A stretch of DNA of 37,714 nt, from the IMG/VR virus record IMGVR_UViG_2526164601_000037. One strand, given 5' to 3'. The DNA comes from a virus (Duplodnaviria; Heunggongvirae; Uroviricota; Caudoviricetes). The notes under the pieces are model-generated. The model was not told where the DNA came from. It saw only the letters and a list, made by a program, of their open reading frames with translations, and searched no databases. Of this stretch, positions 736 to 37,714 are shown piece by piece (the stretch's first letter is position 1; each line of letters opens with the position of its first letter). The translations under genes were made by a program, and so were the position numbers.

Positions 736-1149
736 TCAGATTCCCTCCCAAACTATATATCCTTTGTCTCTTGCCCAACAAACAACTGTGTGGGCTGTAT
801 ATGTGGATGTGAAGCCGCAATAAGAACATGACACTTCATACCGAGTATTGTAGATGTTAATGGGCTCGTTCTCCTTGTGTATGGGAGTGACATATTCCCA
901 ATCATTTGAATCATCATAATCATCAAGTTCAGGGTCTGTGCCGTGAACAACCGTATGTGGAATAAACAAATCTGGGCGCCCACACGAGAGACAAGAGGTT
1001 CTGGCTCCTCTATCTTTAAGGAATTGAATAAATAATTTGGGCGAAATCTGTTGCAGAACCTGCAAATGCCCACGTTCATTATCATTAAGAGACCTGTCTG
1101 CATATGGAAAATCATCAAATTTAAGAGGCTTCATATAAGGCATCTCCAA
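736..1149 (-). CDS. Hypothetical Cys-containing protein (CxxC pairs CLSC and CSYC); tightly coupled to the downstream coiled-coil gene
   Basis: ORF track; stop abuts the start of the 193..735 gene; the 5' end overlaps the 3' end of int, so the true start may be a downstream Met. Confidence 0.5.
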   Translation of the reverse strand: MEMPYMKPLKFDDFPYADRSLNDNERGHLQVLQQISPKLFIQFLKDRGARTSCLSCGRPDLFIPHTVVHGTDPELDDYDDSNDWEYVTPIHKENEPINIYNTRYEVSCSYCGFTSTYTAHTVVCWARDKGYIVWEGI

Positions 1150-2113
1150 GGGGATTAAATCTCACCGCATCCTGCAGGTAATCCGGCGCAAGATGGGCAT
1201 AAATCATCGTTGTCTGAATCTTTGCGTGCCCCAGAATTTTCTGGAGCGTCAGAATATTGCCGCCGTTCATCATGAAATGACTGGCGAAGGTGTGGCGCAG
1301 CGCATGAACAGCCTGGCCGTCAGGAACATCAGGTGCGACCGTTTTGATGACATCGCGAACCAATGGATAATCCAGCGTCGGAAACACCAGTTTCCCGCCC
1401 CGTTTTTTGATCTTTTCAAACAGGCTTTCAGAAATAGGAACGGTACGGTTTTTGCTGTTCTTCGTTTTTGAAAAAGTGATTCGACAATGAAGAACACGGC
1501 GCTGCTCCAGTGCCGCTACCTCGCCCCATCGCGCCCCGGTCGACAGAAGGATTTCGACAGCCAGCCGTTCATCGGGATTTTCAGCCAGTGCATCCAGCAA
1601 CTGAACACATTCAGACTTACTCAGATATCCCATTTCGCGCTCGTTAACCTTCATTCCTTTAAGGCCTTGAACGGGGTTATCGTTAAGAAAATGGCCGGAT
1701 GAGATGAGTGCGGTAAACATCGCGCTTAACGCCCCAATCTCTCGATTTATGGTGCTGGGCTGTATCCCCTGCTCTATCCTGGACACACGTAGCTCGGTGA
1801 GCATCGTTGTATTAAGTTTATGCACGCACGGGTCATCCATTGCCTCACTCAAGCGCAGCAATTTAAGGCGCGTGTTATGCCCTGACTTCATTAGCTGGCC
1901 GTGGTATTTCCACCACAAGTCAATAAGCACTGACAGCGGACGGCGATCAATGGAGTTTCCTTTCCACTCATTGTTATGCTGTTGCGCCAGCACCCACCGC
2001 TCATATAAAACTGCATCCGATTTCGTTTTAAATTTTTTGCGAATGCGTTTGCCTTTACGCCCCTCCGGGCGCATGTCAAGAAGATACCCTCCCGGAATTG
2101 ATTTTATGCTCAT
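1121..2113 (-). CDS. int: Tyrosine integrase, P2 Int-like
   Basis: N-terminus MSIKSIPGGYLLDMRPEGRKGKRIRKKF resembles the P2 Int N-terminus as recalled; catalytic-region motifs HALRHTFAS and MIYAHL. Start trimmed from the ORF-track 2263 to the ATG at 2113. Confidence 0.9.
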   Translation of the reverse strand: MSIKSIPGGYLLDMRPEGRKGKRIRKKFKTKSDAVLYERWVLAQQHNNEWKGNSIDRRPLSVLIDLWWKYHGQLMKSGHNTRLKLLRLSEAMDDPCVHKLNTTMLTELRVSRIEQGIQPSTINREIGALSAMFTALISSGHFLNDNPVQGLKGMKVNEREMGYLSKSECVQLLDALAENPDERLAVEILLSTGARWGEVAALEQRRVLHCRITFSKTKNSKNRTVPISESLFEKIKKRGGKLVFPTLDYPLVRDVIKTVAPDVPDGQAVHALRHTFASHFMMNGGNILTLQKILGHAKIQTTMIYAHLAPDYLQDAVRFNPLGDALYEAS

Positions 2114-2162
2114 TCGTGAAACCCCAGCGTTACAAGACCACCATGCCCCCAGCGCTCCATGA

Positions 2163-2474
2163 TTAGCCGGGCTGTGTGCCAGTCTTGCGGGGTTTTTGAG
2201 AAGGCGATGTGCTTTTTGGCCCATCAGGGGAGAGAGACGGACTGATCTGCCCAGCAGCCTCATTTGTTTCGTTACTCATCAACCACGTGGTGTATTTTTT
2301 AAAGTTCGGATGCATTGTGATTTTCAGTAAAACCTCCGTCCCCACACCTCTAATACCAGTCTCATATTGCTTAACTGTACCAACCGCAATACCTATTGAA
2401 TCCGCGAACTTTGCCTGGCTAAGTCCCTCAGATTCTCGAATTGCTTTTAGCTTCTTTGATATCTCTATTGACAT
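2163..2474 (-). CDS. C: Immunity repressor, P2 C-like
   Basis: Helix-turn-helix segment LSQAKFADSIGIAVGTVKQYETG and C-terminal FKKYTTWLMSNE...GQISPSL resembling P2 C as recalled; start trimmed to the internal ATG at 2474; divergent from the early operon. Confidence 0.8.
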   Translation of the reverse strand: MSIEISKKLKAIRESEGLSQAKFADSIGIAVGTVKQYETGIRGVGTEVLLKITMHPNFKKYTTWLMSNETNEAAGQISPSLSPDGPKSTSPSQKPRKTGTQPG

Positions 2475-9072: not shown

Positions 9073-10032
9073 ATGAAAATTTGTATCGACGACGGCTCCA
9101 CCAACATCAAGCTGGCATGGACTGAGAACAGCGAACGCCGCAACGCCATCAGCCCGAACAGCTTCAAGTCGGAATGGTCTGCGCCGTTCGGTGGCTCGCA
9201 GCCTGCGAACTACATGCTTGATGGCGTGCGCTATGGTTTTGATCCGGTCAGCGATCGCTTTGTCCAGACGACCGACACGCAATACCAGTACAGCGATGTG
9301 AATGTAATCGCCATTCACCACGCGCTGGTCAAATCAGGCATCACACCACAGGAGGTGGATGTGGTTGTCACCCTGCCACTGAGCGAGTATTTCGACACAA
9401 ACGCACAGCCGGACATGGCCAACATCAACCGCAAAAAAGCGAACGTTATGCGCCCGGTGGAGTACCAGAACGGTGAGGCATTCACTATCCGTAACGTGCG
9501 GGTTATGCCTGAATCCATTCCGGCTGGCTTTAAAGCACTGGCTGACATGAGTCCGTTTGAATCCCTGCTGATTGTGGATTTAGGCGGAACCACGCTGGAT
9601 GTGGCAAAGGTTCAGGGACAACTGGCAGGTATCAGCCAGGTGTTTTGCGATCCACACGTAGGCGTTTCCCTGATGGCCGATGCCGTACTGTCGGTGATGG
9701 CCACTAACGGTATGCGTACCAGTCACCACATCGCCAATACCATTATCGAACATCGCCATGATGAAGCCTGGCTGCGCCAGCACATCCACAATGACGCGCA
9801 TTACAACAGCCTGATGGCGGTTATTCGTGAAAAGGAAGAAACACTGAAACAACGCGTGATCCGCGCGCTGGCGGGTTTTTCGGGTTACGGGCGGGTGATG
9901 GTTGTCGGTGGAGGGGCGGAGATTGTGGCACCCGCTATCCGCGAAGCCTGCGGAGTTAATGCGACTTTCATCGCGGACGGGGTGCCACAGTTTGCTCTGG
10001 TTAATGGGCTGTACGCAATGGACAAGGAGTAA
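9073..10032 (+). CDS. parM: Actin-like segregation ATPase, ParM/StbA family
   Basis: N-terminus MKICIDDGSTNIKLAW and motifs SPNSF, YSDVNVIAIHHAL, VMPESIPAG, LIVDLGGTTLD, VMVVGGGAE match plasmid R1 ParM as recalled; RBS AAGGAAAAG. Confidence 0.9.
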   Translation: MKICIDDGSTNIKLAWTENSERRNAISPNSFKSEWSAPFGGSQPANYMLDGVRYGFDPVSDRFVQTTDTQYQYSDVNVIAIHHALVKSGITPQEVDVVVTLPLSEYFDTNAQPDMANINRKKANVMRPVEYQNGEAFTIRNVRVMPESIPAGFKALADMSPFESLLIVDLGGTTLDVAKVQGQLAGISQVFCDPHVGVSLMADAVLSVMATNGMRTSHHIANTIIEHRHDEAWLRQHIHNDAHYNSLMAVIREKEETLKQRVIRALAGFSGYGRVMVVGGGAEIVAPAIREACGVNATFIADGVPQFALVNGLYAMDKE

Positions 10033-11708: not shown

Positions 11709-12089
11709 ATGATTAAAGTCTCTGTCCACAATGACATAGAACTCCCCGCAGTTGCTCGTAAATATGCACATGCTTTGCAGTCATGGAAAAACGGCGGATC
11801 TTTACCCTCAGTCTTTGGCAACGAAGGGCAGTGGGAAGATAGCGGGCGTCTTCGTGATTCTTTTGTTTTTAAGATTCACATTCGTTTACCTGATGAACAG
11901 CCGTGGCCTGCAAAGCTACCTGCCGCCTCGCGTAAATCAAACAGTTATCTTGTTTACTCCCGCCATTTCTTATATCCAGATAAGTATCAGCTAATCAGCA
12001 TTATGACACCCAATGCGCATGAGTTAGCCCGTACATCCTACATGGCAGAAATTGAGCGCAGAGCAGAAGAGTTCCAGTCTTCTTTTTGA
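11709..12089 (+). CDS. YafO-family toxin-like protein (ribosome-dependent mRNA interferase family)
   Basis: Segments SWKNGGSLPSVFG, FKIHIRLP, SYLVYSRH, QLISIMTPNAHELAR and MAEIERRAEEF align with E. coli YafO as recalled. Confidence 0.7.
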   Translation: MIKVSVHNDIELPAVARKYAHALQSWKNGGSLPSVFGNEGQWEDSGRLRDSFVFKIHIRLPDEQPWPAKLPAASRKSNSYLVYSRHFLYPDKYQLISIMTPNAHELARTSYMAEIERRAEEFQSSF

Positions 12090-30353: not shown

Positions 30354-30866
30354 TCAGCCAAGCCCAAGCGCGGAACGGATGCGATCGGGCACAATGTCCT
30401 TGCCGTCCTTCCGGTAAATGAAGTTCAGCAGGTCAATCTCCCACAACGGGCGATCGTTAACACTCAGCTTGTAGTAGGTGTTTTTAATGGCATAAGTGTG
30501 TGATGTGGCTTCGCCCTGTTTGGCTTCCCCCATATCAATTTCCGTCACACGTCCGCGCATTTCGACTTCATACAGATCGCTTTCTGCATCGGTGTAGTAT
30601 TCACCCGCAAAACGCAGCAGTGTGCCGTCAATCGTGCCGCCATACTTAAGGAACAGCTCACGAACTGCGCCCCCCATGACAAAGCTCGCATCAAGCGCGG
30701 AGTCGTCCAGGCCGAGATCAATACTTACCGCCCCCATCATGCCACCACCCCGGTAGCTGTCGGTTTTGCGCGTCAGCTTAGGCAGAGTGACGGACGTCAC
30801 CTTACCCACTTCGTTTTCACCATCCACAAACAGCGTAAAAAAGCGAAGATGTTTTGGCACAGCCAT
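30354..30866 (-). CDS. FII: Tail tube protein, P2 gpFII-like
   Basis: ORF track, 170 aa; position between sheath and E. Confidence 0.85.
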   Translation of the reverse strand: MAVPKHLRFFTLFVDGENEVGKVTSVTLPKLTRKTDSYRGGGMMGAVSIDLGLDDSALDASFVMGGAVRELFLKYGGTIDGTLLRFAGEYYTDAESDLYEVEMRGRVTEIDMGEAKQGEATSHTYAIKNTYYKLSVNDRPLWEIDLLNFIYRKDGKDIVPDRIRSALGLG

Positions 30867-32050
30867 CAGGCACCTCCCAGCACCGCAAATGCGGGTTCAA
30901 AGTATTCATCAGTAAACGTCTGGTAAAGCTCCATGTCTTCCAGTGGCGGAACGGGCGTATATTTGTAGCGAATACGCACACGTCCCTGACGTAAATCCGT
31001 GGTGCTGTTATCCACCACGTCATACCAGCACTCCGCGCCAATCAGTTTCCCGGCAGTAACCAGTGAATCCAGTTTTGCCCTGATGGCACTGATAACATCC
31101 TTCACGTTCGCAGGCGTCAGTGGACTGTCGATGGTTTCAAACTGCGCTTCCGCAATTGAATCAGCCAGCACCTGTGCGGTTCGGGTATACACCTCAAAGA
31201 TGTAGGCGTTCGTTTCCGGTGTGCGGTTGCCCCAGAAGCGGAACCCGTTGCGACGAATAATGGTCGTGATTTCTTTGTTGTTGAGGCTGTTGGCATCGCT
31301 GTCTTCGGCCTGCAACGACCAGAACACATGCCTCGACATCCCCAGCACATTTTTAACCGGAACGTTGGACAGTGATTTGTGCCATCCCTGCTCATGGTCA
31401 ATGTACGCACGAAGGCCGCACGCATAGGCAGACGCGGGGAACGTTTCGTTTTTGCCACTTTTCGGGTTGTAGGCGATGAAGTCCGGCCATAAGAGCATCA
31501 CCTCACGTTCGTTGAATTTCTGGCGGTAGGTAATCGCCTCAGCCATCGTGTTACAGCCGTGACATGAGGCATACACAAACGCGCGCAGTTTACCTGCAAT
31601 CACGCACAGGGATTTTGTTACAGCCTCCGTGTCCAGCTCCGGCGCGGCCAGAATACGCGGACGGTATCCGATGCTTTCATCCTGCTCTGCAACAAGCAGC
31701 GCATACATCCCCGTATAGCTGCCGTCATCCTCAGAACCACCGATAACCAGTTGATCCTGCGTCTTTCCGTCTTCTTCTTTGTGTTCAGCCACGCGAACGA
31801 CGATCACCTTTGTGCTCACCTGGTCTGCGATGGCCTTAAGCGCACGATAAAGCGTCCCCGTTGTCCCGCATTTTCCCAGCACGTCATTGACGCGGGTCAG
31901 CAGTGTGGGCTTGTTCAGCGGGAACAGCTTCGCGTCCGCATCATCCGCCGTTGCCACGATACCGATAACGCTGGAATCAACATCGTTAATCGCTGTTACC
32001 AGGTCGGTATTTTCCGTAACACGGGCACCATGAAAACGAGTTTCACTCAT
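30866..32050 (-). CDS. FI: Tail sheath protein, P2 gpFI-like
   Basis: ORF track, 394 aa; first gene of the minus-strand FI-FII-E-T-U block. Confidence 0.85.
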   Translation of the reverse strand: MSETRFHGARVTENTDLVTAINDVDSSVIGIVATADDADAKLFPLNKPTLLTRVNDVLGKCGTTGTLYRALKAIADQVSTKVIVVRVAEHKEEDGKTQDQLVIGGSEDDGSYTGMYALLVAEQDESIGYRPRILAAPELDTEAVTKSLCVIAGKLRAFVYASCHGCNTMAEAITYRQKFNEREVMLLWPDFIAYNPKSGKNETFPASAYACGLRAYIDHEQGWHKSLSNVPVKNVLGMSRHVFWSLQAEDSDANSLNNKEITTIIRRNGFRFWGNRTPETNAYIFEVYTRTAQVLADSIAEAQFETIDSPLTPANVKDVISAIRAKLDSLVTAGKLIGAECWYDVVDNSTTDLRQGRVRIRYKYTPVPPLEDMELYQTFTDEYFEPAFAVLGGA

Positions 32051-32207: not shown

Positions 32208-33308
32208 ATGACCGATACCACCATGCAATTGCTCAGTCAGGGCACAGACCCCGTGAAAATGCCGGATTTTGATATTCTCGCGGAGGGTAAAACGCTGTCA
32301 GGCGTGGCAGAGCGCCTGATGAGCCTGTCACTGACCGACAACCGGGGATTTGAGGCGGACCAGCTCACCATCACGCTGGATGATGCGGATGGTCAGTTGC
32401 AGCTACCGCCACGGGGCGCGCGCCTGACGGTTCTCATTGGCTGGAAAGGAGAACCGCTGACAGAAAAAGGCACTTACATTGTTGATGAAATCGCTCACGA
32501 AGGACCGCCGGACAGGCTGACTGTTTCAGCCAGAAGCGCAGATTTTCGGGATGAATTTAACGTTAAACGTGAGGTGTCCTGGCATGATGTGACCGTTGAG
32601 CGTGTGGTATCCGCCATCGCTCATCGATGGTCTGAAACCGCAAATCAGCGAAATGCTGATGGATATCGAAATCGACCACGCCGACCAGACCGAAGAAAGC
32701 GACATGTCCTTTCTTACGCGCATGGCGGAAATGCTGGGCGCAATCACCACCGTAAAAAGCGGCAATCTGTTATTCATCATGCCAGGTGGTGGCGTGAACG
32801 CACAGGGCCAGCCGTTGCCCTCGTTCGCCATTACACGCAGCAGCGGCGATCGCCATCAGTTCCGTATTGCTGACCGCGAGGCGTATACGGGGGTACGCGC
32901 TTACTGGCTTGATCTTAATTACGGGAAAAAGAAAAAGTCAGCGTGAAACGCCGCAAACCGCCAAAACCCAAAAAGGAGAAAAGCAGCAGCCGTGAAGGTG
33001 ATTATATGGAAGGCGCGGAAGGAAATGTGTTTGTGTTACGCAAGACTTATCAGAACGAGCAGGCAGCAAGACGCGCTGCGGCGGCAAAGTGGCAGCAGCT
33101 ACAACGCGGAGCCGCATCATTCTCCATCACGCTGGCGCGTGGACGTGCAGAACTCTACCCCGAAATGCATGGCACGGTAACAGGATTTAAAAGCGAGATT
33201 GATAATCAGGACTGGATTATTGCAAAAGCCGAGCACACCATTGATAACAGTGGCTTTACCACGCAGCTTGAGCTTGAGGCAAAAATCCCGGAATGGATAG
33301 CAGAATGA
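32208..33308 (+). pseudogene. D: Gene D (P2 gpD-like tail/late protein) interrupted by two frameshifts
   Basis: gpD similarity runs through three frames: 32208 to about 32625 (LSLTDNRGFEADQL, SARSADFR), about 32626..32946 (FLTRMAEMLG, ITRSSGDRHQF, AYTGV), and 32943..33308 (GDYMEGAEGNVF, NSGFTTQLELE). Second shift lies in the A-run gggaaaaagaaaaag (32923..32937). Confidence 0.55.
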
Positions 33309-33472
33309 GACTCTTAAATGTATTAGTCCAGACACGTACTAGCGGGCTAAACGGCACAGTCTTATCTGACCATCTGCCCCTAACACAGAGCAGACGGTCC
33401 TTGATCTTACCCACTAATAATGGACGCGCGACTAATATAATTTATTGCTTTTTATTTATACCTCACTGAGAT

Positions 33473-34108
33473 TTAGCGAGCTAATATATTCAAAGAATTT
33501 AACAATTGAGTGTCGAGTGTTTCAGTTGCAGGAATCGGTAATCCATTCGCAATGCGGTAATTTTTCACAGACAGCCTTGTGGATGGCCCCATTATGCCGT
33601 CAATATTTCCGTTATAAAATCCCCTGTCCAGCAATGCGAACTGAACTCGCATAATCAATCGCTTACGTTTCTCTGCATCAGAAGCAAGCCCATTACTCGT
33701 ACGGTTAACCTCTGAAGTTCCAACAGAACTCGTGTTAGTGGTTCTATTATTATCGTTAGAACGAAGTGCACGCACCGAGGAAGAGGACGATGAGGAACTT
33801 GCACCTGAACTTGAAGAACCAGATGAACTTGGTGAGCTGTATGTTTTTGGATAATAGGGGGTACTTCCACCATAGTATCCACCACCTGATGAGGATCTAT
33901 GAGAGCTATGGCTCCTATGAGAGCTATGGCTTCGATGCCCTGCGATATAAAATGGGACTTCCGTGTTAAGTGGAGCTATCACTAAATCATGCTCATTAAG
34001 AGTCATACCAGGTAAATCACTCGCTCCTGTAGATGAATCGCTTGCCCATACAGAATTGTTGAGAGCCAAAAATCCCGGAAGTAGAGCAGCAAAATTAAAC
34101 TTTTTCAT
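33473..34108 (-). CDS. hxsA: His-Xaa-Ser repeat protein (HxsA-like precursor) with signal peptide, Ser-rich tract and C-terminal peptidoglycan-binding-like domain
   Basis: Start at the ATG at 34108 (MKKFNFAALLPGFLALNNSVWA); repeats HRSHSSHRSHSSHRSSS; poly-Ser tract; C-terminal LDRGFYNGNIDGIMGPSTRLSVKNYRIANGLP. ORF-track frame extends upstream to 34186. Confidence 0.7.
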   Translation of the reverse strand: MKKFNFAALLPGFLALNNSVWASDSSTGASDLPGMTLNEHDLVIAPLNTEVPFYIAGHRSHSSHRSHSSHRSSSGGGYYGGSTPYYPKTYSSPSSSGSSSSGASSSSSSSSVRALRSNDNNRTTNTSSVGTSEVNRTSNGLASDAEKRKRLIMRVQFALLDRGFYNGNIDGIMGPSTRLSVKNYRIANGLPIPATETLDTQLLNSLNILAR

Positions 34109-35217
34109 AAAATTGGTCTCGGTGATTGATGAAAACGGCCTTTTGAGGAACTGAAATAGCCAGCACAGGAAGGCTTCTGAGTACATTCATCACATTCTTT
34201 TGGATAGTAATTTTTCCAATCAGAGATCGACTGAACAGCAAGCTCCCTAGCCCTTTCAGGAAGATAACACAAAGGATAATTAAAAATTGTCAGAGGTATG
34301 CCTGACCTGTATGCAGCGTCTATGGCAGAGATTATTTTCTCACTATAACTACTGTGATCAATGAAGATGGTGGACCAGTTTTTTCGTGCCCAACCGATAG
34401 GCTCCAACCCCATAAGGGAAATCTGATTGATGTTGGAGAACACACGGCCAGCGAATTCTACAATATCATCCAATTCGGTATAGTTAGCCAGTGTAGGAAT
34501 AACTCTAAGTTCGATATTAATCCCCAAGTTTCCTGCATTGATTAACCCTTTAACCGTTTCATTAAATGCGCCATCACTCCCTACCAGATGATCATGCACA
34601 AGTGGTCTTGATGAGTAGAGCGGGATACCAAAGGTGATTTTGATCTTTTTGCTTCGCTTTGCCATTTCCTGTGTAAAGTTGATATCAGCAAATTTGCGTC
34701 CGTTTGTTAAAACATGTAAAGCAGTATCTGGTGAATTCTCGATGATAAAGTCAATGAAGTGAAGGAAGTCATCCCCATATAGCAAAGGTTCACCACCGCT
34801 GACCCCAACAACTCCGTTCAAGCCAAATGAAGCTATAGCAAGAGCTGATTGGGTAAGTAGCCAGTCATCATTTATTTTCTTTGGTGGCTGCGAACAAAAC
34901 AGACACAAGTTATTGCAGCGTTCCGTAACTAAGACAGTATTATGATTGGCTTTGCGTGACAGAATAACGCGTATCATATTGCCATTGTTGATTATCCCAA
35001 TATCTCCATCTTCAATTGACTCAAATAATTCAGTGCTAATAACAGAGAAATCAAAGCATGGTGGAATGGCATCATTATTGCCTTCAGCAACTACTAGCAA
35101 ATTGGGCAAAAAGAATAAAGGGTTCACTGGTTTTTGTTTGCATAACCGATAGAACCCCGTGGGCACGTTCTCTGTAGAAGCAAAATGAAAGATATCGTTC
35201 CTGATAACCTCAGACAT
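34105..35217 (-). CDS. hxsC: Radical SAM maturase of the His-Xaa-Ser system (HxsC-like; B/C assignment tentative)
   Basis: CNNLCLFC (CX3CX2C) cluster motif, GGEPLL SAM-binding motif, C-terminal Cys cluster CDECTQKPSC; overlaps neighbours by a few nt. Confidence 0.8.
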   Translation of the reverse strand: MSEVIRNDIFHFASTENVPTGFYRLCKQKPVNPLFFLPNLLVVAEGNNDAIPPCFDFSVISTELFESIEDGDIGIINNGNMIRVILSRKANHNTVLVTERCNNLCLFCSQPPKKINDDWLLTQSALAIASFGLNGVVGVSGGEPLLYGDDFLHFIDFIIENSPDTALHVLTNGRKFADINFTQEMAKRSKKIKITFGIPLYSSRPLVHDHLVGSDGAFNETVKGLINAGNLGINIELRVIPTLANYTELDDIVEFAGRVFSNINQISLMGLEPIGWARKNWSTIFIDHSSYSEKIISAIDAAYRSGIPLTIFNYPLCYLPERARELAVQSISDWKNYYPKECDECTQKPSCAGYFSSSKGRFHQSPRPIL

Positions 35218-36598
35218 ATGCCCATCCTTTTAGCATCTCAGCCTTCGAACCACCCTCTGAGATGCAGTTCATCAGATACCTGAACATCCCCTTGTGGTAT
35301 TGACAAAACGTTGAACGACTCCTATCACCGACAGGCTCACCCTGTACACTTATGTTCTGGCATGGATCTGAACCACAAAATGGTTGATATGCACATGTAT
35401 CACAACCTGGCAGAGCAAAATTGAACGATGAACTCAATACTGCGTTATAGTAAGGACTATCAGAAAATGATAGCGTCTTAACTTCACCCGCACTGAACTC
35501 CATTTCAGGATTCACCTTCTGCAACATACGGCTCTCATCGCTACCATATACTCGACCGTCATAATTGAAAAGAATACTGTTAAGCACGACTCCACTTGGA
35601 GACTTTAAATCCGCATAACCACTAAAACCGGGATTGAAGATCCTTTTCAGATGAATGGAGGCCGAATGTTCCACAACCCTTATCCCTTCATTATTAATCT
35701 TAAGGATTTCATCTATCAACGAGGCATAGAAGCTGAAGTATTCGTCCATAGAAAAGGTGAAAGAAGCTTTTTGTGCAAACCCATAGGGACTAACAGGTCG
35801 GATAAACATGTCCTTGAGACCAAGAGACAAGTGAGCCTGAACAATCGATTCAGGACGTCTGATAAGCTCTTTAGTAACTGTAGTAACCGTTGCAACGCGG
35901 CCAGCACCTAAAGAGTGTTTGATAGCCTCCACCCCTGACACTGTTCTACTGTACGCAAGCCCACGACCAAGAATTCGATTACTGTTGTGAACAACTTCCT
36001 CACCATCAAGCGACACAGAGAACGTTATGTTCCGGTCTCTCGACCATTCAATCATATCCTCATTCAAGACAGACAGACTTGATGCCACCACCATCTCAAA
36101 ATTGGTTCTTCCCAGCGTTTCAGCACATTGATCATAGATGCTCTGAATTAAATCAAACCGCAAGAGAGGCTCCCCACCCTGTATCTCTATTTTGTAAGGT
36201 GGCGTTGATAGTTTTTTAATAGCCGAAATAATATCGGGGATGAGCTCAGGATTTAGGTCGTAACCTAAGGCATTAACAGAAGCTCTACTAACCTGGCAAT
36301 ACTTGCATGTATGGTCACAACGTAATGTGGGTACAATCATGAAAATTGGCCTGACAGCCAGTTCATTCATCAATCGTTTTGCAAAAGCAGAACTTAAAGC
36401 ATAGGGAGTTATAGCAGATGAGCTTTCACTGGTTATGAAAAGCTTACTTTCTAGCACGTTTGATTGCTCCGAACTAATTCGCTCATCAGAAAGATCAATA
36501 AGGTCTTGCTCACCAATGAAATGATGAAAACCTGCAAGGTTGCTTATAAACACCTGTCCATTAGGCAATCTGTCAAAATTAAATGGCATCAATTCCAT
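35210..36598 (-). CDS. hxsB: Radical SAM maturase of the His-Xaa-Ser system with SPASM-like C-terminal Cys cluster (HxsB-like; B/C assignment tentative)
   Basis: CDHTCKYC (CX3CX2C), GGEPLL, C-terminal CDTCAYQPFCGSDPC; start overlaps the hxsD stop. Confidence 0.8.
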   Translation of the reverse strand: MELMPFNFDRLPNGQVFISNLAGFHHFIGEQDLIDLSDERISSEQSNVLESKLFITSESSSAITPYALSSAFAKRLMNELAVRPIFMIVPTLRCDHTCKYCQVSRASVNALGYDLNPELIPDIISAIKKLSTPPYKIEIQGGEPLLRFDLIQSIYDQCAETLGRTNFEMVVASSLSVLNEDMIEWSRDRNITFSVSLDGEEVVHNSNRILGRGLAYSRTVSGVEAIKHSLGAGRVATVTTVTKELIRRPESIVQAHLSLGLKDMFIRPVSPYGFAQKASFTFSMDEYFSFYASLIDEILKINNEGIRVVEHSASIHLKRIFNPGFSGYADLKSPSGVVLNSILFNYDGRVYGSDESRMLQKVNPEMEFSAGEVKTLSFSDSPYYNAVLSSSFNFALPGCDTCAYQPFCGSDPCQNISVQGEPVGDRSRSTFCQYHKGMFRYLMNCISEGGSKAEMLKGWAYV

Positions 36599-36912
36599 TA
36601 TGAAAGTCTCTCATCAACACTGCGAAGCACTTTATGGACAATAGAGTCTCTCAACGCCCCTGTTTTATGCTGTAGCTTTTCTCGCAAAGAGTAATCATTA
36701 AGCAGCCTATCGAATTCATAAAGGAATTTGGGATTATCGTTTTCAAAAGAGATTATCCAGTGGGAAACGTCTTCATGGAGTTTCCATCGAGTAAGCGGAG
36801 TCATCCAATATAGACTATTGCGTATAACCCATTCAGAATATAGTTCTTTCTCAAACACTCTTTCGCTCATTGCAATTATCTTCCAATACAAATATTCATG
36901 ATCAGCAACCAC
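36598..36912 (-). CDS. hxsD: His-Xaa-Ser system protein HxsD-like
   Basis: Contains LLNDYSLRE, matching the LLNDYxLRE signature recalled for the HxsD family; first gene of the minus-strand cassette. Confidence 0.8.
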   Translation of the reverse strand: MVADHEYLYWKIIAMSERVFEKELYSEWVIRNSLYWMTPLTRWKLHEDVSHWIISFENDNPKFLYEFDRLLNDYSLREKLQHKTGALRDSIVHKVLRSVDERLS

Positions 36913-37122
36913 TTTAAAGCGGATTTTTCCTATGGCAACAATAATATAACATATCCATAGATATGTTACAGATGCCTTGTTTCCCGTTGACTAATACATC
37001 ACAACGTTAGTAATGGCTATCACAATTGTGAACTTCCACTTTTCACACAAGACAAGCTGTTAATTGGAATCTGTATCAGTACAACTTAGAATAGCGGAAG
37101 CACCACAGTAAGGGAGGTCGCT

Positions 37123-37383
37123 ATGTTCCGTTGTCCACTTTGTGGCGCATCTGCCCGTATCCGCACTAGTCGTCCGGAAAATGATTCAAACACTGTGCGG
37201 CAAAAGTATTACCAATGTAACAACCTAGAATGCGGCGTATGCTTCTCAACACTGGAAGCTTTCCATAAATTCACATCGAAACACGCCTCCGGCGCTCACT
37301 CTTCAGAAGGTATCCCGTGGCATGAACTGCCAGCTTCACACAAAGGAAACAATCAGATGAGTTTGCCCTTACCTCAAAATTAA
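37123..37383 (+). CDS. ogr: Late-gene transcription activator, Ogr/Delta zinc-finger family
   Basis: MFRCPLCGASARIRTSRPE...YYQCNNLECG matches the P2 Ogr pattern (MFHCPLC...ARTSR...QC.N..C) as recalled; RBS AGGGAGG. Confidence 0.85.
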   Translation: MFRCPLCGASARIRTSRPENDSNTVRQKYYQCNNLECGVCFSTLEAFHKFTSKHASGAHSSEGIPWHELPASHKGNNQMSLPLPQN

Positions 37384-37473: not shown

Positions 37474-37707
37474 GTGGAAAGGCCCCGGAAAACATTTCTG
37501 TTTAACCGAGGCCCTAACCGCATTACCTTGACAAGTGAAAGGTTAGCGCCTCTCCGGAAAAGGAGCAAGTGCTATGTCGCAAAAATCGCTTACGGCCATC
37601 ACGTTCTGCGTGACGGCAATCCTCATCATCTGGATGTTGCACGGTTCGCTGTGCGAAATACGGATGAGCTTCTGGGGAGCGGAGTTTGCGGCGTTCTTAC
37701 AGTGTAA
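37474..37707 (+). CDS. Possible mok-like overlapping reading frame of the hok locus
   Basis: ORF track; overlaps nearly all of the hok-like gene in another frame, as mok does in hok/sok loci. Confidence 0.35.
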   Translation: MERPRKTFLFNRGPNRITLTSERLAPLRKRSKCYVAKIAYGHHVLRDGNPHHLDVARFAVRNTDELLGSGVCGVLTV

Positions 37708-37714
37708 GCAGTAA
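37574..37714 (+). CDS. hok: Hok/Gef-family membrane toxin (type I toxin-antitoxin)
   Basis: 46-aa product MSQKSLTAITFCVTAILIIWMLHGSLCEIRMSFWGAEFAAFLQCKQ with the SLCEIR motif and single TM helix; RBS AGGAG; stop codon is the last three bases of the window. Confidence 0.8.
   Translation: MSQKSLTAITFCVTAILIIWMLHGSLCEIRMSFWGAEFAAFLQCKQ

Follow-up and report, generated by a model that had tools for sequence, protein, structure and literature searches.

What does a temperate phage carry when it carries a gene for a His-Xaa-Ser repeat protein, and how much of the answer lies in the protein and how much in its place in the phage genome? The stretch of DNA that we analysed (the window) comprises 37,714 nucleotides of a Caudoviricetes virus (IMG/VR record IMGVR_UViG_2526164601_000037) and contains such a gene, hxsA. 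An earlier note on this DNA had described the product as a precursor with several distinct parts and had proposed that it is exported and anchored to the cell wall. Our analysis indicates that hxsA is very probably the effector gene of a complete HXS anti-phage system, carried as cargo by a P88-like (Xuanwuvirus, P2-like) E. coli prophage.

hxsA closes a complete hxs operon

The hxsA open reading frame encodes 211 amino acids, as first described (Table 1). Its product belongs to the NCBIfam equivalog family TIGR03979: residues 4–209 align to positions 4–189 of the 190 in the model, a full-length alignment with a score of 161.3 bits against a cutoff of 121.65. RefSeq contains an identical CDS, which is named hxsA. 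The start codon at 34108 is supported by four observations: the hxsC stop and the hxsA start share an ATGA overlap, all 39 aligned relatives share the initial methionine, the TIGR03979 match begins at residue 4 and model position 4, and the RefSeq CDS is identical. An upstream start at 34186, which would give an ORF of 237 amino acids, was rejected; it lies inside hxsC and is backed neither by the family alignment nor by annotation.

Table 1. Features of hxsA, its operon and the surrounding prophage region, in coordinates of the window.
Feature	Position	Strand	Basis
gpD (P2 late control D, tail gene), left border	32208..33308	+	frameshifted in the window
Cargo insertion with the whole hxs operon, 3,776 bp	33306..37081	.	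junctions compared with Xuanwuvirus P88_4B11
hxsA CDS, His-Xaa-Ser repeat precursor and probable effector	33473..34108	-	TIGR03979 match and RefSeq hxsA annotation
Predicted PG_binding_1-type three-helix domain, codons 148-211	33476..33667	-	Pfam, profile, AlphaFold, Foldseek
Ser-rich low-complexity linker, codons 91-147	33668..33838	-	40% Ser; predicted disordered, pLDDT <50
Gly/Tyr-rich segment GGGYYGGSTPYYPKTY, codons 75-90	33839..33886	-	composition, family alignment
Five tandem His-Xaa-Ser repeats, codons 58-74 (HRS HSS HRS HSS HRS, then SS)	33887..33937	-	sequence, shuffles
Sec-type signal-like N-terminus MKKFNFAALLPGFLALNNSVWA, codons 1-22	34043..34108	-	rule-based n/h/c-region check; cleavage predicted after VWA
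hxsC, radical SAM maturase	34105..35217	-	TIGR03977, 397.5 bits (cutoff 267.9)
hxsB, radical SAM maturase	35210..36598	-	TIGR03978, 556 bits (cutoff 370)
hxsD, 90-aa accessory protein with LYW and LLNDYSLRE motifs	36598..36870	-	TIGR03976, 90.6 bits (cutoff 50)
ogr, late-gene activator, right border	37123..37383	+	Pfam Ogr_Delta, E = 5.4e-14; RefSeq ogr/Delta-like

hxsA is the last gene of a complete hxsD-hxsB-hxsC-hxsA operon, whose genes lie on the same strand and overlap or abut each other. This order, D-B-C-A, is found in 99.6% of HXS systems (Li et al., Nat Commun 2026; PMC13128918). All four Hxs proteins exceed the cutoffs of their NCBIfam equivalog models, and RefSeq names the operon in 46 near-identical E. 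coli genomes. The HxsA–D families reportedly go back to work by Haft and Basu in the Journal of Bacteriology in 2011, as cited by Li et al.

The functional motifs defined by Li et al. are all present here, namely the radical SAM Cys clusters, LYW and LLNDYxLRE in HxsD, and SHRSS in HxsA. HxsB has a CxxxCxxC motif at 94–101 and a second Cys pair at 399/402, and in HxsC these elements are at 101–108 and 342/345. They include the very positions that were mutated in the published system of E. coli strain MEM (HxsB 98/101 and 399/402; HxsC 105/108 and 342/345), in which the Cys motifs are identically placed. HxsD is modelled with a pLDDT of 94. We also considered HxsD as a PqqD-like RiPP recognition element and rejected this, as its top 50 PDB folds were designed beta-sheet heterodimers and KH-like or ferredoxin-like domains and contained no such element.

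When the operon was searched by megablast against the genomes of 50,697 deposited phages, nothing matched, and tblastn with HxsB against deposited phages yielded no more than Leptospira phage LE1 (30% identity) and a single faecal contig. Deposited phages therefore provide no close comparison. PHROGs contains families for HxsC and HxsB, and HxsA had only two weak matches there (E ~1e-3), to an endolysin family and to a family of unknown function. PADLOC returned weak viperin-type matches to the radical SAM domains and nothing for HxsA and HxsD. PADLOC-DB v2.0.0 (2023) has no dedicated HXS model, and prophage defence censuses based on that database would thus miss HXS. Scans of the cargo for promoter and terminator consensus sequences showed no enrichment over shuffled sequences (12 versus 8.9 +/- 3.1 and 4 versus 2.8 +/- 1.6, respectively).

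Architecture of HxsA

The earlier note held that HxsA is not a minimal repeat peptide, and we found each of the parts that it listed: a signal-like N-terminus, HxS repeats, a Gly/Tyr-rich segment, a Ser-rich tract and a domain resembling those that bind peptidoglycan. As read from the alignments, this five-part layout is the defining architecture of TIGR03979 and not a peculiarity of the prophage-borne copy. Our alignment of relatives, which made the comparison with non-phage loci that the note had called for, contains the same architecture in non-phage E. coli islands and in other genera. Members of TIGR03979 share the N-terminal region, the HxS array, the C-terminal domain and the co-occurrence with HxsB, HxsC and HxsD (TIGR03978, TIGR03977 and TIGR03976). 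Nothing of substance sets the window copy apart from them, except that the Ser-rich linker of the enterobacterial clade is longer than in most.

The N-terminus begins with MKK, continues with FNFAALLPGFLAL and reaches V-W-A|S at 22/23, a division that comes from a rule-based check only. By that rule it has the positively charged n-region (two Lys), the hydrophobic h-region and the small residues at -3/-1 of a Sec-dependent (SPase I) signal. The hydrophobic stretch is 13 residues long, with a mean Kyte-Doolittle hydropathy of 2.2 over 11 residues, and the n-, h- and c-region pattern recurs in all 39 sequences checked (HxsA and 38 relatives). A search for a twin-arginine motif in this N-terminus found none. 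The signal peptide that the note had read from the sequence thus agrees with the rule, and the start codon that yields it is the supported one. In the HxsA of Li et al. the signal peptide likewise spans residues 1–22 and is needed for periplasmic localisation (PMC13128918). Because these authors found that N-terminal cleavage is not plain removal by signal peptidase (PMC13128918), the export route of HxsA is incompletely understood. Our family alignment shows that the first 57 residues, with LLPGF and APLN, are unusually conserved for a signal peptide. It may be, speculatively, that this region (LLPGF...APLN) doubles as a recognition leader for HxsB, HxsC and HxsD.

Residues 58–74, HRSHSSHRSHSSHRSSS, consist of five tandem HxS units. 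The chance expectation for such an array, given the composition, is 1e-9, and the longest run in 200,000 shuffles was three units, which bears out the repeats described earlier. In the DNA, a perfect 18-nt unit is repeated 1.9 times at 33897–33931. Within the family, H58, R59, S69, H70 and S72 are invariant and R71 is nearly so. The last unit is part of the SHRSS motif (residues 69–73), to which a +8 Da modification was mapped in the homologous HxsA (Li et al., PMC13128918). The mass of the published modified peptide, HxsA(48-78) with m/z 714.5 at 5+ (3567.46 Da), does not fit residues 48–78 of the window protein (3380.55 Da + 8), and no sub-peptide of window HxsA that contains SHRSS comes within 1 Da of it. 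The mismatch may mean that the protein of Li et al. is not the same in sequence, or that the label in their figure is only approximate.

The Gly/Tyr-rich segment and the Ser-rich tract were also found as described. G75 is invariant and an SSSGGGY consensus is kept across the family, and the Ser-rich linker varies in length and sequence. Residues 114–139 of the 214-aa protein of Li et al., in their numbering, were dispensable for antiphage activity (PMC13128918). For mature residues 48–211 of the window protein we computed a pI of 10.3 and, at pH 7, a net charge of +9.

The C-terminal domain is predicted to have the PG_binding_1 three-helix fold, in keeping with the resemblance that the note had pointed out. 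HxsA itself scores 22.3 bits against Pfam PG_binding_1 (PF01471), 0.7 below the gathering score of 23. PG_binding_1 matches at E <= 0.001 in 33 of 39 aligned relatives, with a best value of 3.4e-14, and the family profile matches the peptidoglycan-binding domain of SleB in the PDB (E = 4e-6). The AlphaFold model of residues ~141–211 contains three helices with pLDDT 84–97. The best 13 Foldseek matches in the PDB are all PG_binding_1 domains (rmsd 1.0–2.0 A, probability 0.63–1.00), led by SleB 6tci (rmsd 1.0 A over 55 columns, probability 1.00); their E-values are modest (0.02–3) because the domain has only ~55 residues. The PG_binding_1 modules of SleB, SltB2/SltB3, CtpB, L,D-transpeptidases and phage endolysins share this fold and the motif Q..L...G....DG..G..T. 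In HxsA the module has no enzyme as its partner and is instead joined to a modified repeat array and a linker that is predicted to be disordered.

A characterised homologue and the proposed mechanism

The closest point of reference is the HXS system of strain MEM. As in the window, its HxsA has a signal peptide at residues 1–22, five HxS repeats ending in SHRSS and a peptidoglycan-binding domain; the window protein has 211 residues and the MEM protein 214. The class of copies with at least 99% identity (46 copies) derives from an E. coli collection that does not include MEM (CP012378), and the tested operon does not belong to this class. HxsB and HxsC of E. coli fall into clusters with 80–90% identity within each (PMC13128918).

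The homologous operon restricted 110 of 113 coliphages. Phage adsorption was unchanged, and entry of T7 DNA was delayed from ~8–12 min to 30–50 min (PMC13128918). HxsA was matured by HxsB, HxsC and HxsD; all four genes were required, and mutation of any single HxS repeat led to loss of defence (PMC13128918). Only wild-type HxsA reached the periplasm, and defence was abolished when its signal peptide was replaced or its peptidoglycan-binding domain was mutated (PMC13128918). These experiments support, by way of the homologue, the exported and wall-anchored product that the earlier note had proposed. They also match its guess of superinfection exclusion at the envelope, which was already known.

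By analogy, the prophage copy would be active too, and its mechanism may be pictured as follows. HxsA would be synthesised as a 211-aa precursor, on which HxsB, HxsC and HxsD would act in the cytoplasm, processing the N-terminal part and modifying the last of the HxS repeats (SHRSS). The Sec-type N-terminus would carry it to the periplasm, where the C-terminal domain would retain it on peptidoglycan. The flexible Ser-rich linker would then display the basic HxS array, such that genome ejection by incoming phages stalls. In a lysogen the outcome would be a broad superinfection exclusion, useful to both prophage and host. The direct target is presumably either the DNA itself or the ejection channel across the periplasm.

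Weighing other functions

HxsA could instead be read as a classical RiPP precursor, from which the radical SAM machinery frees a small diffusible HxS peptide (a bacteriocin, signal or metallophore) and of which the rest is carrier. HxsB and HxsC do resemble peptide-modifying radical SAM/SPASM maturases (PapB, CbpB, anaerobic sulfatase maturase and others), HxsB has been catalogued among RiPP-type radical SAM enzymes (PMC9062424), and the conserved N-terminal 57 residues are what one would see in a leader peptide. However, the family always keeps a folded C-terminal domain, matched by PG_binding_1 in 33 of 39 relatives and 64 residues long in the window protein, where a classical RiPP releases a short peptide as its product. 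In the homologue that domain is needed for function, and mass spectrometry recovered nearly all of residues 48–214 as one processed protein (PMC13128918). We therefore regard a released peptide as very improbable. Still harder to credit is a periplasmic, wall-anchored binder of Ni, Zn or Cu, chelated by the His/Ser repeats, for which phage resistance would be indirect or absent; the earlier note had named metal binding beside exclusion. Five regularly spaced His in 17 positions do recall metal-binding His-rich tracts, but in none of three E. coli contexts are there metal-related genes in or adjoining the operon, which instead is carried by a prophage and by integrase-bearing islands, with other defence-type genes (ABC-three-component systems) as neighbours. 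The conserved Arg residues of the repeats fit a basic, polyanion-binding array better than a chelator. A direct anti-phage phenotype and DNA binding have moreover been reported for the homologue (PMC13128918).

A further reading, itself a form of the main explanation, keeps the anti-phage function and changes the direct target: HxsA would act on the cell wall rather than on DNA. While bound to peptidoglycan, it would interfere with the channel assembly or the local remodelling of the wall that phages require to get through the periplasm, and T7 gp16 or virion-associated lysins are examples of what it might block. Escape mutations of T7 map to gp15 and gp16, both of them ejectosome proteins, and not to DNA features, the peptidoglycan-binding domain is essential, and Li et al. 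list channel obstruction as a possible mode (PMC13128918). The closest structural relatives of the domain are, in addition, the peptidoglycan-binding modules of lytic transglycosylases, L,D-transpeptidases and endolysins. On the other hand, a pull-down detected no interaction of HxsA with gp15 or gp16, periplasmic HxsA bound DNA in vitro, and the breadth of restriction argues against recognition of specific phage proteins (PMC13128918). Action on the wall is on balance unlikely, though a serious contender. A model based on DNA binding is itself mechanistically weak, since a protein channel normally encloses phage DNA on its way through the periplasm, as Li et al. acknowledge (PMC13128918).

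The hxs operon as prophage cargo

The whole operon lies in an insertion between gpD and ogr. This insertion takes the place of 10 bp in the interval from the gpD stop to ogr, which measures 42 bp in P88_4B11, and its GC content is ~41% versus ~54% in the flanking tail genes. Its position between phage core genes, its absence from P88_4B11 and its deviating GC identify it as cargo (a moron). The same arrangement is found in 46–47 complete E. coli genomes, and the gpD-ogr junction of other strains holds other cargo (DUF3800, PIN, YecA-like and ParA-like proteins) or none. Compared with three references in which gpD is intact, gpD of the window lacks 2 nt at 32627 and 1 nt at 32932 and is thereby frameshifted; with gpD broken here, the benefit to the phage may be historical only. 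Identical loci with an intact gpD are present in IMG/VR viral contigs. The available text of two surveys of P2 hotspots does not name the gpD-ogr slot, and the hotspots described for P2 in that text are gpA-gpQ or lie in the tail genes.

In contrast to this location inside a P2-like prophage, Li et al. found HXS to be typically chromosomal: 77% of the operons did not fall within prophages called by geNomad (PMC13128918). There is, in our estimate, about an even chance that HXS in this lineage is a phage-borne, broad-spectrum superinfection-exclusion module in the gpD-ogr cargo slot of P88/P2-like prophages. If so, prophage cargo would account for ~30% of the HXS operons found in complete E. 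coli genomes, and the rest would reside on integrase-bearing islands. Carriage by both prophages and islands would therefore mean that HXS is mobile and is deployed by phages against other phages, and that it is not intrinsic to the chromosome. The prophage location thus qualifies the published view of HXS as an intrinsic bacterial defence that is distinct from phage-encoded exclusion.

The protein itself adds little, as its architecture is contained in a curated model, its gene is named by RefSeq and its function was established by the 2026 paper. HxsA is already annotated and characterised, and the cargo context is only a modest addition: a temperate phage carries a system that blocks DNA entry, in a junction whose cargo varies among strains, which bears on how such systems spread. 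T4 Imm and Sp and the P2 cargo genes old, tin and fun are likewise phage-carried accessory genes that protect against other phages, and HXS, like Imm and Sp, takes effect no later than genome entry. HXS has no sequence or architectural relationship to any of these five and, as described by Li et al., differs from them in its broad spectrum and its need for radical SAM maturation (PMC13128918).

Architecture of HxsA

The translated hxsA ORF (211 aa) matches NCBIfam TIGR03979 over its full length (161.3 bits, cutoff 121.65), so the multi-part architecture is the family's own and not peculiar to the window copy. The upstream products score 397.5 (HxsC, cutoff 267.9), 556 (HxsB, cutoff 370) and 90.6 bits (HxsD, cutoff 50) with their NCBIfam models. 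In the near-identical E. coli genomes among the matches listed, the RefSeq annotation of this locus already carries the names hxsA, hxsB, hxsC and hxsD.

The start at 34108 is supported because it is overlapped by the hxsC stop codon (ATGA), an arrangement typical of translational coupling, because M1 is invariant in the family alignment of 39 sequences, because the NCBIfam model aligns from residue 4 at model position 4, and because an identical CDS is annotated by RefSeq for E. coli O26:H11 11368. A longer ORF starting at 34186 was rejected, as that start lies inside hxsC and has no support. In a rule-based check the N-terminus qualifies as a Sec/SPase I signal peptide, having two Lys, 13 consecutive hydrophobic residues and V-W-A|S at 22/23; the pattern recurs in 38/38 relatives examined. 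The signal peptide predicted in the earlier note, and the start on which it depends, are thus both supported.

All other features listed in that note were found in the translation. Residues 58–74 (HRSHSSHRSHSSHRSSS) form five tandem HxS units, for which the chance expectation from composition is 1e-9; the maximum among 200,000 shuffles was three units. The coding DNA includes 1.9 perfect copies of an 18-nt unit. Residues 75–90 are Gly/Tyr-rich, and residues 91–147 contain 40% Ser and are predicted to be disordered in the model. The mature protein (residues 48–211) has a computed pI of 10.3 and a charge of about +9.

Relatives were aligned from Pantoea, Serratia, Providencia, Proteus, Marinobacter, Pseudoalteromonas, Alteromonas, Alcanivorax, Sulfurovum and metagenomes. 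They share an N-terminal LLPGF segment, a core (APLN...YIAGHRSHSSH...SHSSHRSSSGGGY), a variable Pro/Ser/Thr-rich linker, and the same C-terminal domain throughout; the enterobacterial clade has a longer Ser tract. HxsA proteins from non-phage E. coli islands, a comparison proposed earlier, have the same architecture: residues 1–90 are identical except for a 7-residue deletion in the O55:H7 copy (L003), and differences lie mainly in the linker and C-terminal domain.

Residues 1–57 (window 34043–34108 and 33938–34042) are unusually conserved across genera: LLPGF lies in the hydrophobic core, and at least 90% of sequences have L47 and N48. As ordinary signal peptides lack such cross-genus conservation, this region may double as a recognition sequence for the maturases. 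Residues 23–47 are required (Li et al., PMC13128918), whereas the O55:H7 copy lacks residues 23–29.

The C-terminus resembles a peptidoglycan-binding domain, as the earlier note had proposed. Pfam PG_binding_1 scores 22.3 bits against residues 154–191, just below the gathering score of 23; of the 39 aligned relatives, 33 match it at E <= 0.001, the lowest E-value being 3.4e-14. Searched against solved structures, the family profile finds the SleB PG-binding domain (E = 4e-6) and those of an L,D-transpeptidase, SltB3, SltB2, CtpB and the phiKZ endolysin. In an AlphaFold2 model made from the family alignment, confidence is high only at residues about 141–211 (pLDDT 84–97), which form three helices. 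The 13 best Foldseek matches in the PDB were all PG_binding_1 modules, led by SleB 6tci (rmsd 1.0 A over 55 columns, probability 1.00). Their E-values are modest (0.02–3) because the domain is small. As these matches are consistent and accompany the sequence-profile result, the predicted PG_binding_1 domain is a secure assignment.

Function of the HXS system

An E. coli homologue of the window operon was cloned by Li et al. (Nat Commun 2026, PMC13128918), and this cloned HXS operon restricted 110 of the 113 coliphages tested. Phage adsorption did not change, and at high MOI the growth curves lacked the rapid death of cells that typifies abortive infection. Entry of T7 DNA was delayed, from about 8–12 min to 30–50 min, and T7 escape mutations fell in the ejectosome proteins gp15 and gp16. 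Only wild-type HxsA reached the periplasm, and a +8 Da modification was located at SHRSS; every HxS repeat was needed, periplasmic HxsA bound DNA in vitro, and an HxsC–HxsD complex was found (PMC13128918).

The window copy has Cys motifs at the positions mutated in that study (HxsB 98/101 and 399/402, HxsC 105/108 and 342/345) and SHRSS at 69–73. Together with the homologue experiments, these correspondences support the earlier suggestion that HxsA is exported, anchored to the wall and excludes superinfecting phages. The architecture and, for the homologue, the anti-phage function are already published; the observation is confirmed and its interpretation supported by analysis of the homologue. 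The published +8 Da peptide HxsA(48–78), at m/z 714.5 (5+), corresponds to 3567.5 Da, compared with 3380.55 Da for window residues 48–78 (33875–33967), and no SHRSS-containing sub-peptide of window HxsA lies within 1 Da of the published mass. Either the tested HxsA differs at 48–78 or the labelling is approximate.

In the best-supported account, HxsA would be made as a cytoplasmic precursor and matured there by HxsB, HxsC and HxsD. Maturation is placed in the cytoplasm because radical SAM chemistry requires SAM and a reducing environment; the HxsC–HxsD complex is also cited. The Sec-type N-terminus would export HxsA, the PG_binding_1 domain would tether it to peptidoglycan with the disordered Ser-rich linker as a spacer, and the basic HxS array would act at the genome-ejection step. 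The direct target could be DNA, as Li et al. (PMC13128918) prefer, or a trans-periplasmic channel or the local peptidoglycan, a live variant suggested by the gp15/gp16 escape mutations.

HxsA could instead yield a diffusible RiPP product or, as the earlier note also offered, bind metal. Both readings are much less likely than an ejection block, because the folded domain is conserved, near-full-length processed HxsA was recovered and HXS neighbourhoods are mobile and of defence type.

The highly confident HxsD model (pLDDT 94.4) has a strand–helix–strand–strand fold followed by one 43-residue helix. In the PDB it most resembles designed beta-sheet heterodimers and KH-like or ferredoxin-like domains; none of the top 50 matches has a PqqD/RRE fold. 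We speculate from this model that an exposed sheet edge binds peptide by strand addition.

HXS as prophage cargo

What the window adds to this is modest: HXS occurs as prophage cargo in a slot between gpD and ogr. The window is a P2-like prophage, with the features listed in the table.

Features of the window prophage and its hxs cargo
Feature	Position	Strand	Basis or remark
Integrase	1121-2263		
ParM-type plasmid segregation ATPase	9073-10032	+	StbA_N, E = 7.7e-82; gpA-gpQ hotspot
YafO-family toxin	11709-12089	+	E = 2.3e-27; gpA-gpQ hotspot
P2-type portal, terminase, capsid, baseplate, tail genes			annotation of near-identical O26 prophage
Tail sheath and tube genes	30354-32050		
gpD (late control D)	32208-33308	+	frameshifted
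hxsA	33473-34108	-	NCBIfam
hxsC	34105-35217	-	NCBIfam
hxsB	35210-36598	-	NCBIfam
hxsD	36598-36870	-	NCBIfam
Region around right cargo end	37050-37122		degenerate copy of gpD 3' end
Promoter-like site	37064-37092		TTGGAA, 17 nt, TAGAAT
ogr	37123-37383	+	
hok (Hok/Gef-family toxin)	37574-37714	+	just after ogr, at right end

Window gpD is 97–98% identical to gpD of Escherichia phages P88 and P88_4B11 (Xuanwuvirus, Peduoviridae). In P88_4B11, gpD and ogr are 42 bp apart; homology between this phage and the window ends at 33305 and restarts at 37082, so the hxs operon is a 3,776-bp insertion, with about 41% GC compared with about 54% in the tail genes. All 46 aa of the Hok ORF, which extends to the right edge of the window, can be aligned to Hok of P88_4B11 and O26; hok also lies just after ogr in P88 and P88_4B11.

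At the right cargo end the gpD 3' end is present as a degenerate copy (GGAATCTGTATCAG versus GGAATGGATAGCAG), upstream of ogr the TAGAAT element of the phage is kept, and the promoter-like site straddles the junction. These features point to recombination within short conserved flanks as the means by which cassettes are exchanged, with ogr expression preserved.

Compared with the intact gpD of P88_4B11, O26:H11 and the IMG/VR viral contig L008, window gpD lacks 2 nt at 32627 and 1 nt in an A-run at 32932; about 100 codons are read in the wrong frame, and a stop follows at 32873. The prophage is therefore probably defective, unless the deletions are sequencing errors. The O26:H11 11368 gpD has a different lesion, a 5'-end truncation. 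In the gpA–gpQ hotspot, unannotated ORFs lie between the ParM-type ATPase and YafO-family toxin genes, and no hotspot gene had a PADLOC match.

The hxs operon is present at >=99% identity in 46 complete E. coli genomes, and the gpD–hxs–ogr arrangement in 46–47, as well as in four IMG/VR viral contigs; gpD matches nearly full length in three of these (L008, L009 and L011, 367/369 aa) and over only 279/369 aa in L010. Several E. coli genomes carry IS elements (IS2/IS3 family, ISVsa5) inside hxsB or hxsC, so HXS has been inactivated repeatedly.

Other E. coli HXS operons have about 91% or about 75% DNA identity to the window operon. Of the three sampled non-phage copies, two are in islands adjacent to ssrA and one is in another island; integrase genes or remnants, together with a relaxase, are found near each. 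Directly downstream of hxsA, each encodes a DUF6119/TIGR04141 'sporadically distributed protein' of roughly 540 aa (L002 7292–8935, L003 7122–8934, L004 7376–8983), which is absent from the prophage copy. Prophage cargo makes up about 30% of the E. coli HXS operons found by megablast (46/152), in rough agreement with the 23% reported inside geNomad prophage calls (Li et al., PMC13128918).

PADLOC-DB (2023) contains no HXS model. The two P2 hotspot surveys examined, as far as their searchable text goes, name sites other than gpD–ogr, such as gpA–gpQ in Rousset et al. The searchable text of Rousset et al. 2022 mentions neither ogr, gpD, 'His-Xaa' nor 'radical SAM', and that of a 2026 NAR survey of P2 hotspots neither ogr, gpD, HXS nor radical SAM. 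In P88/P2-like prophages the gpD–ogr junction is a slot with variable cargo. Among 48 HXS-less junctions, an evenly spaced sample of E. coli matches, 26 were empty and 22 held 0.9–1.9 kb of other cargo: DUF3800, PIN domain, YecA family, ParA family, alpha/beta hydrolase and hypothetical genes.
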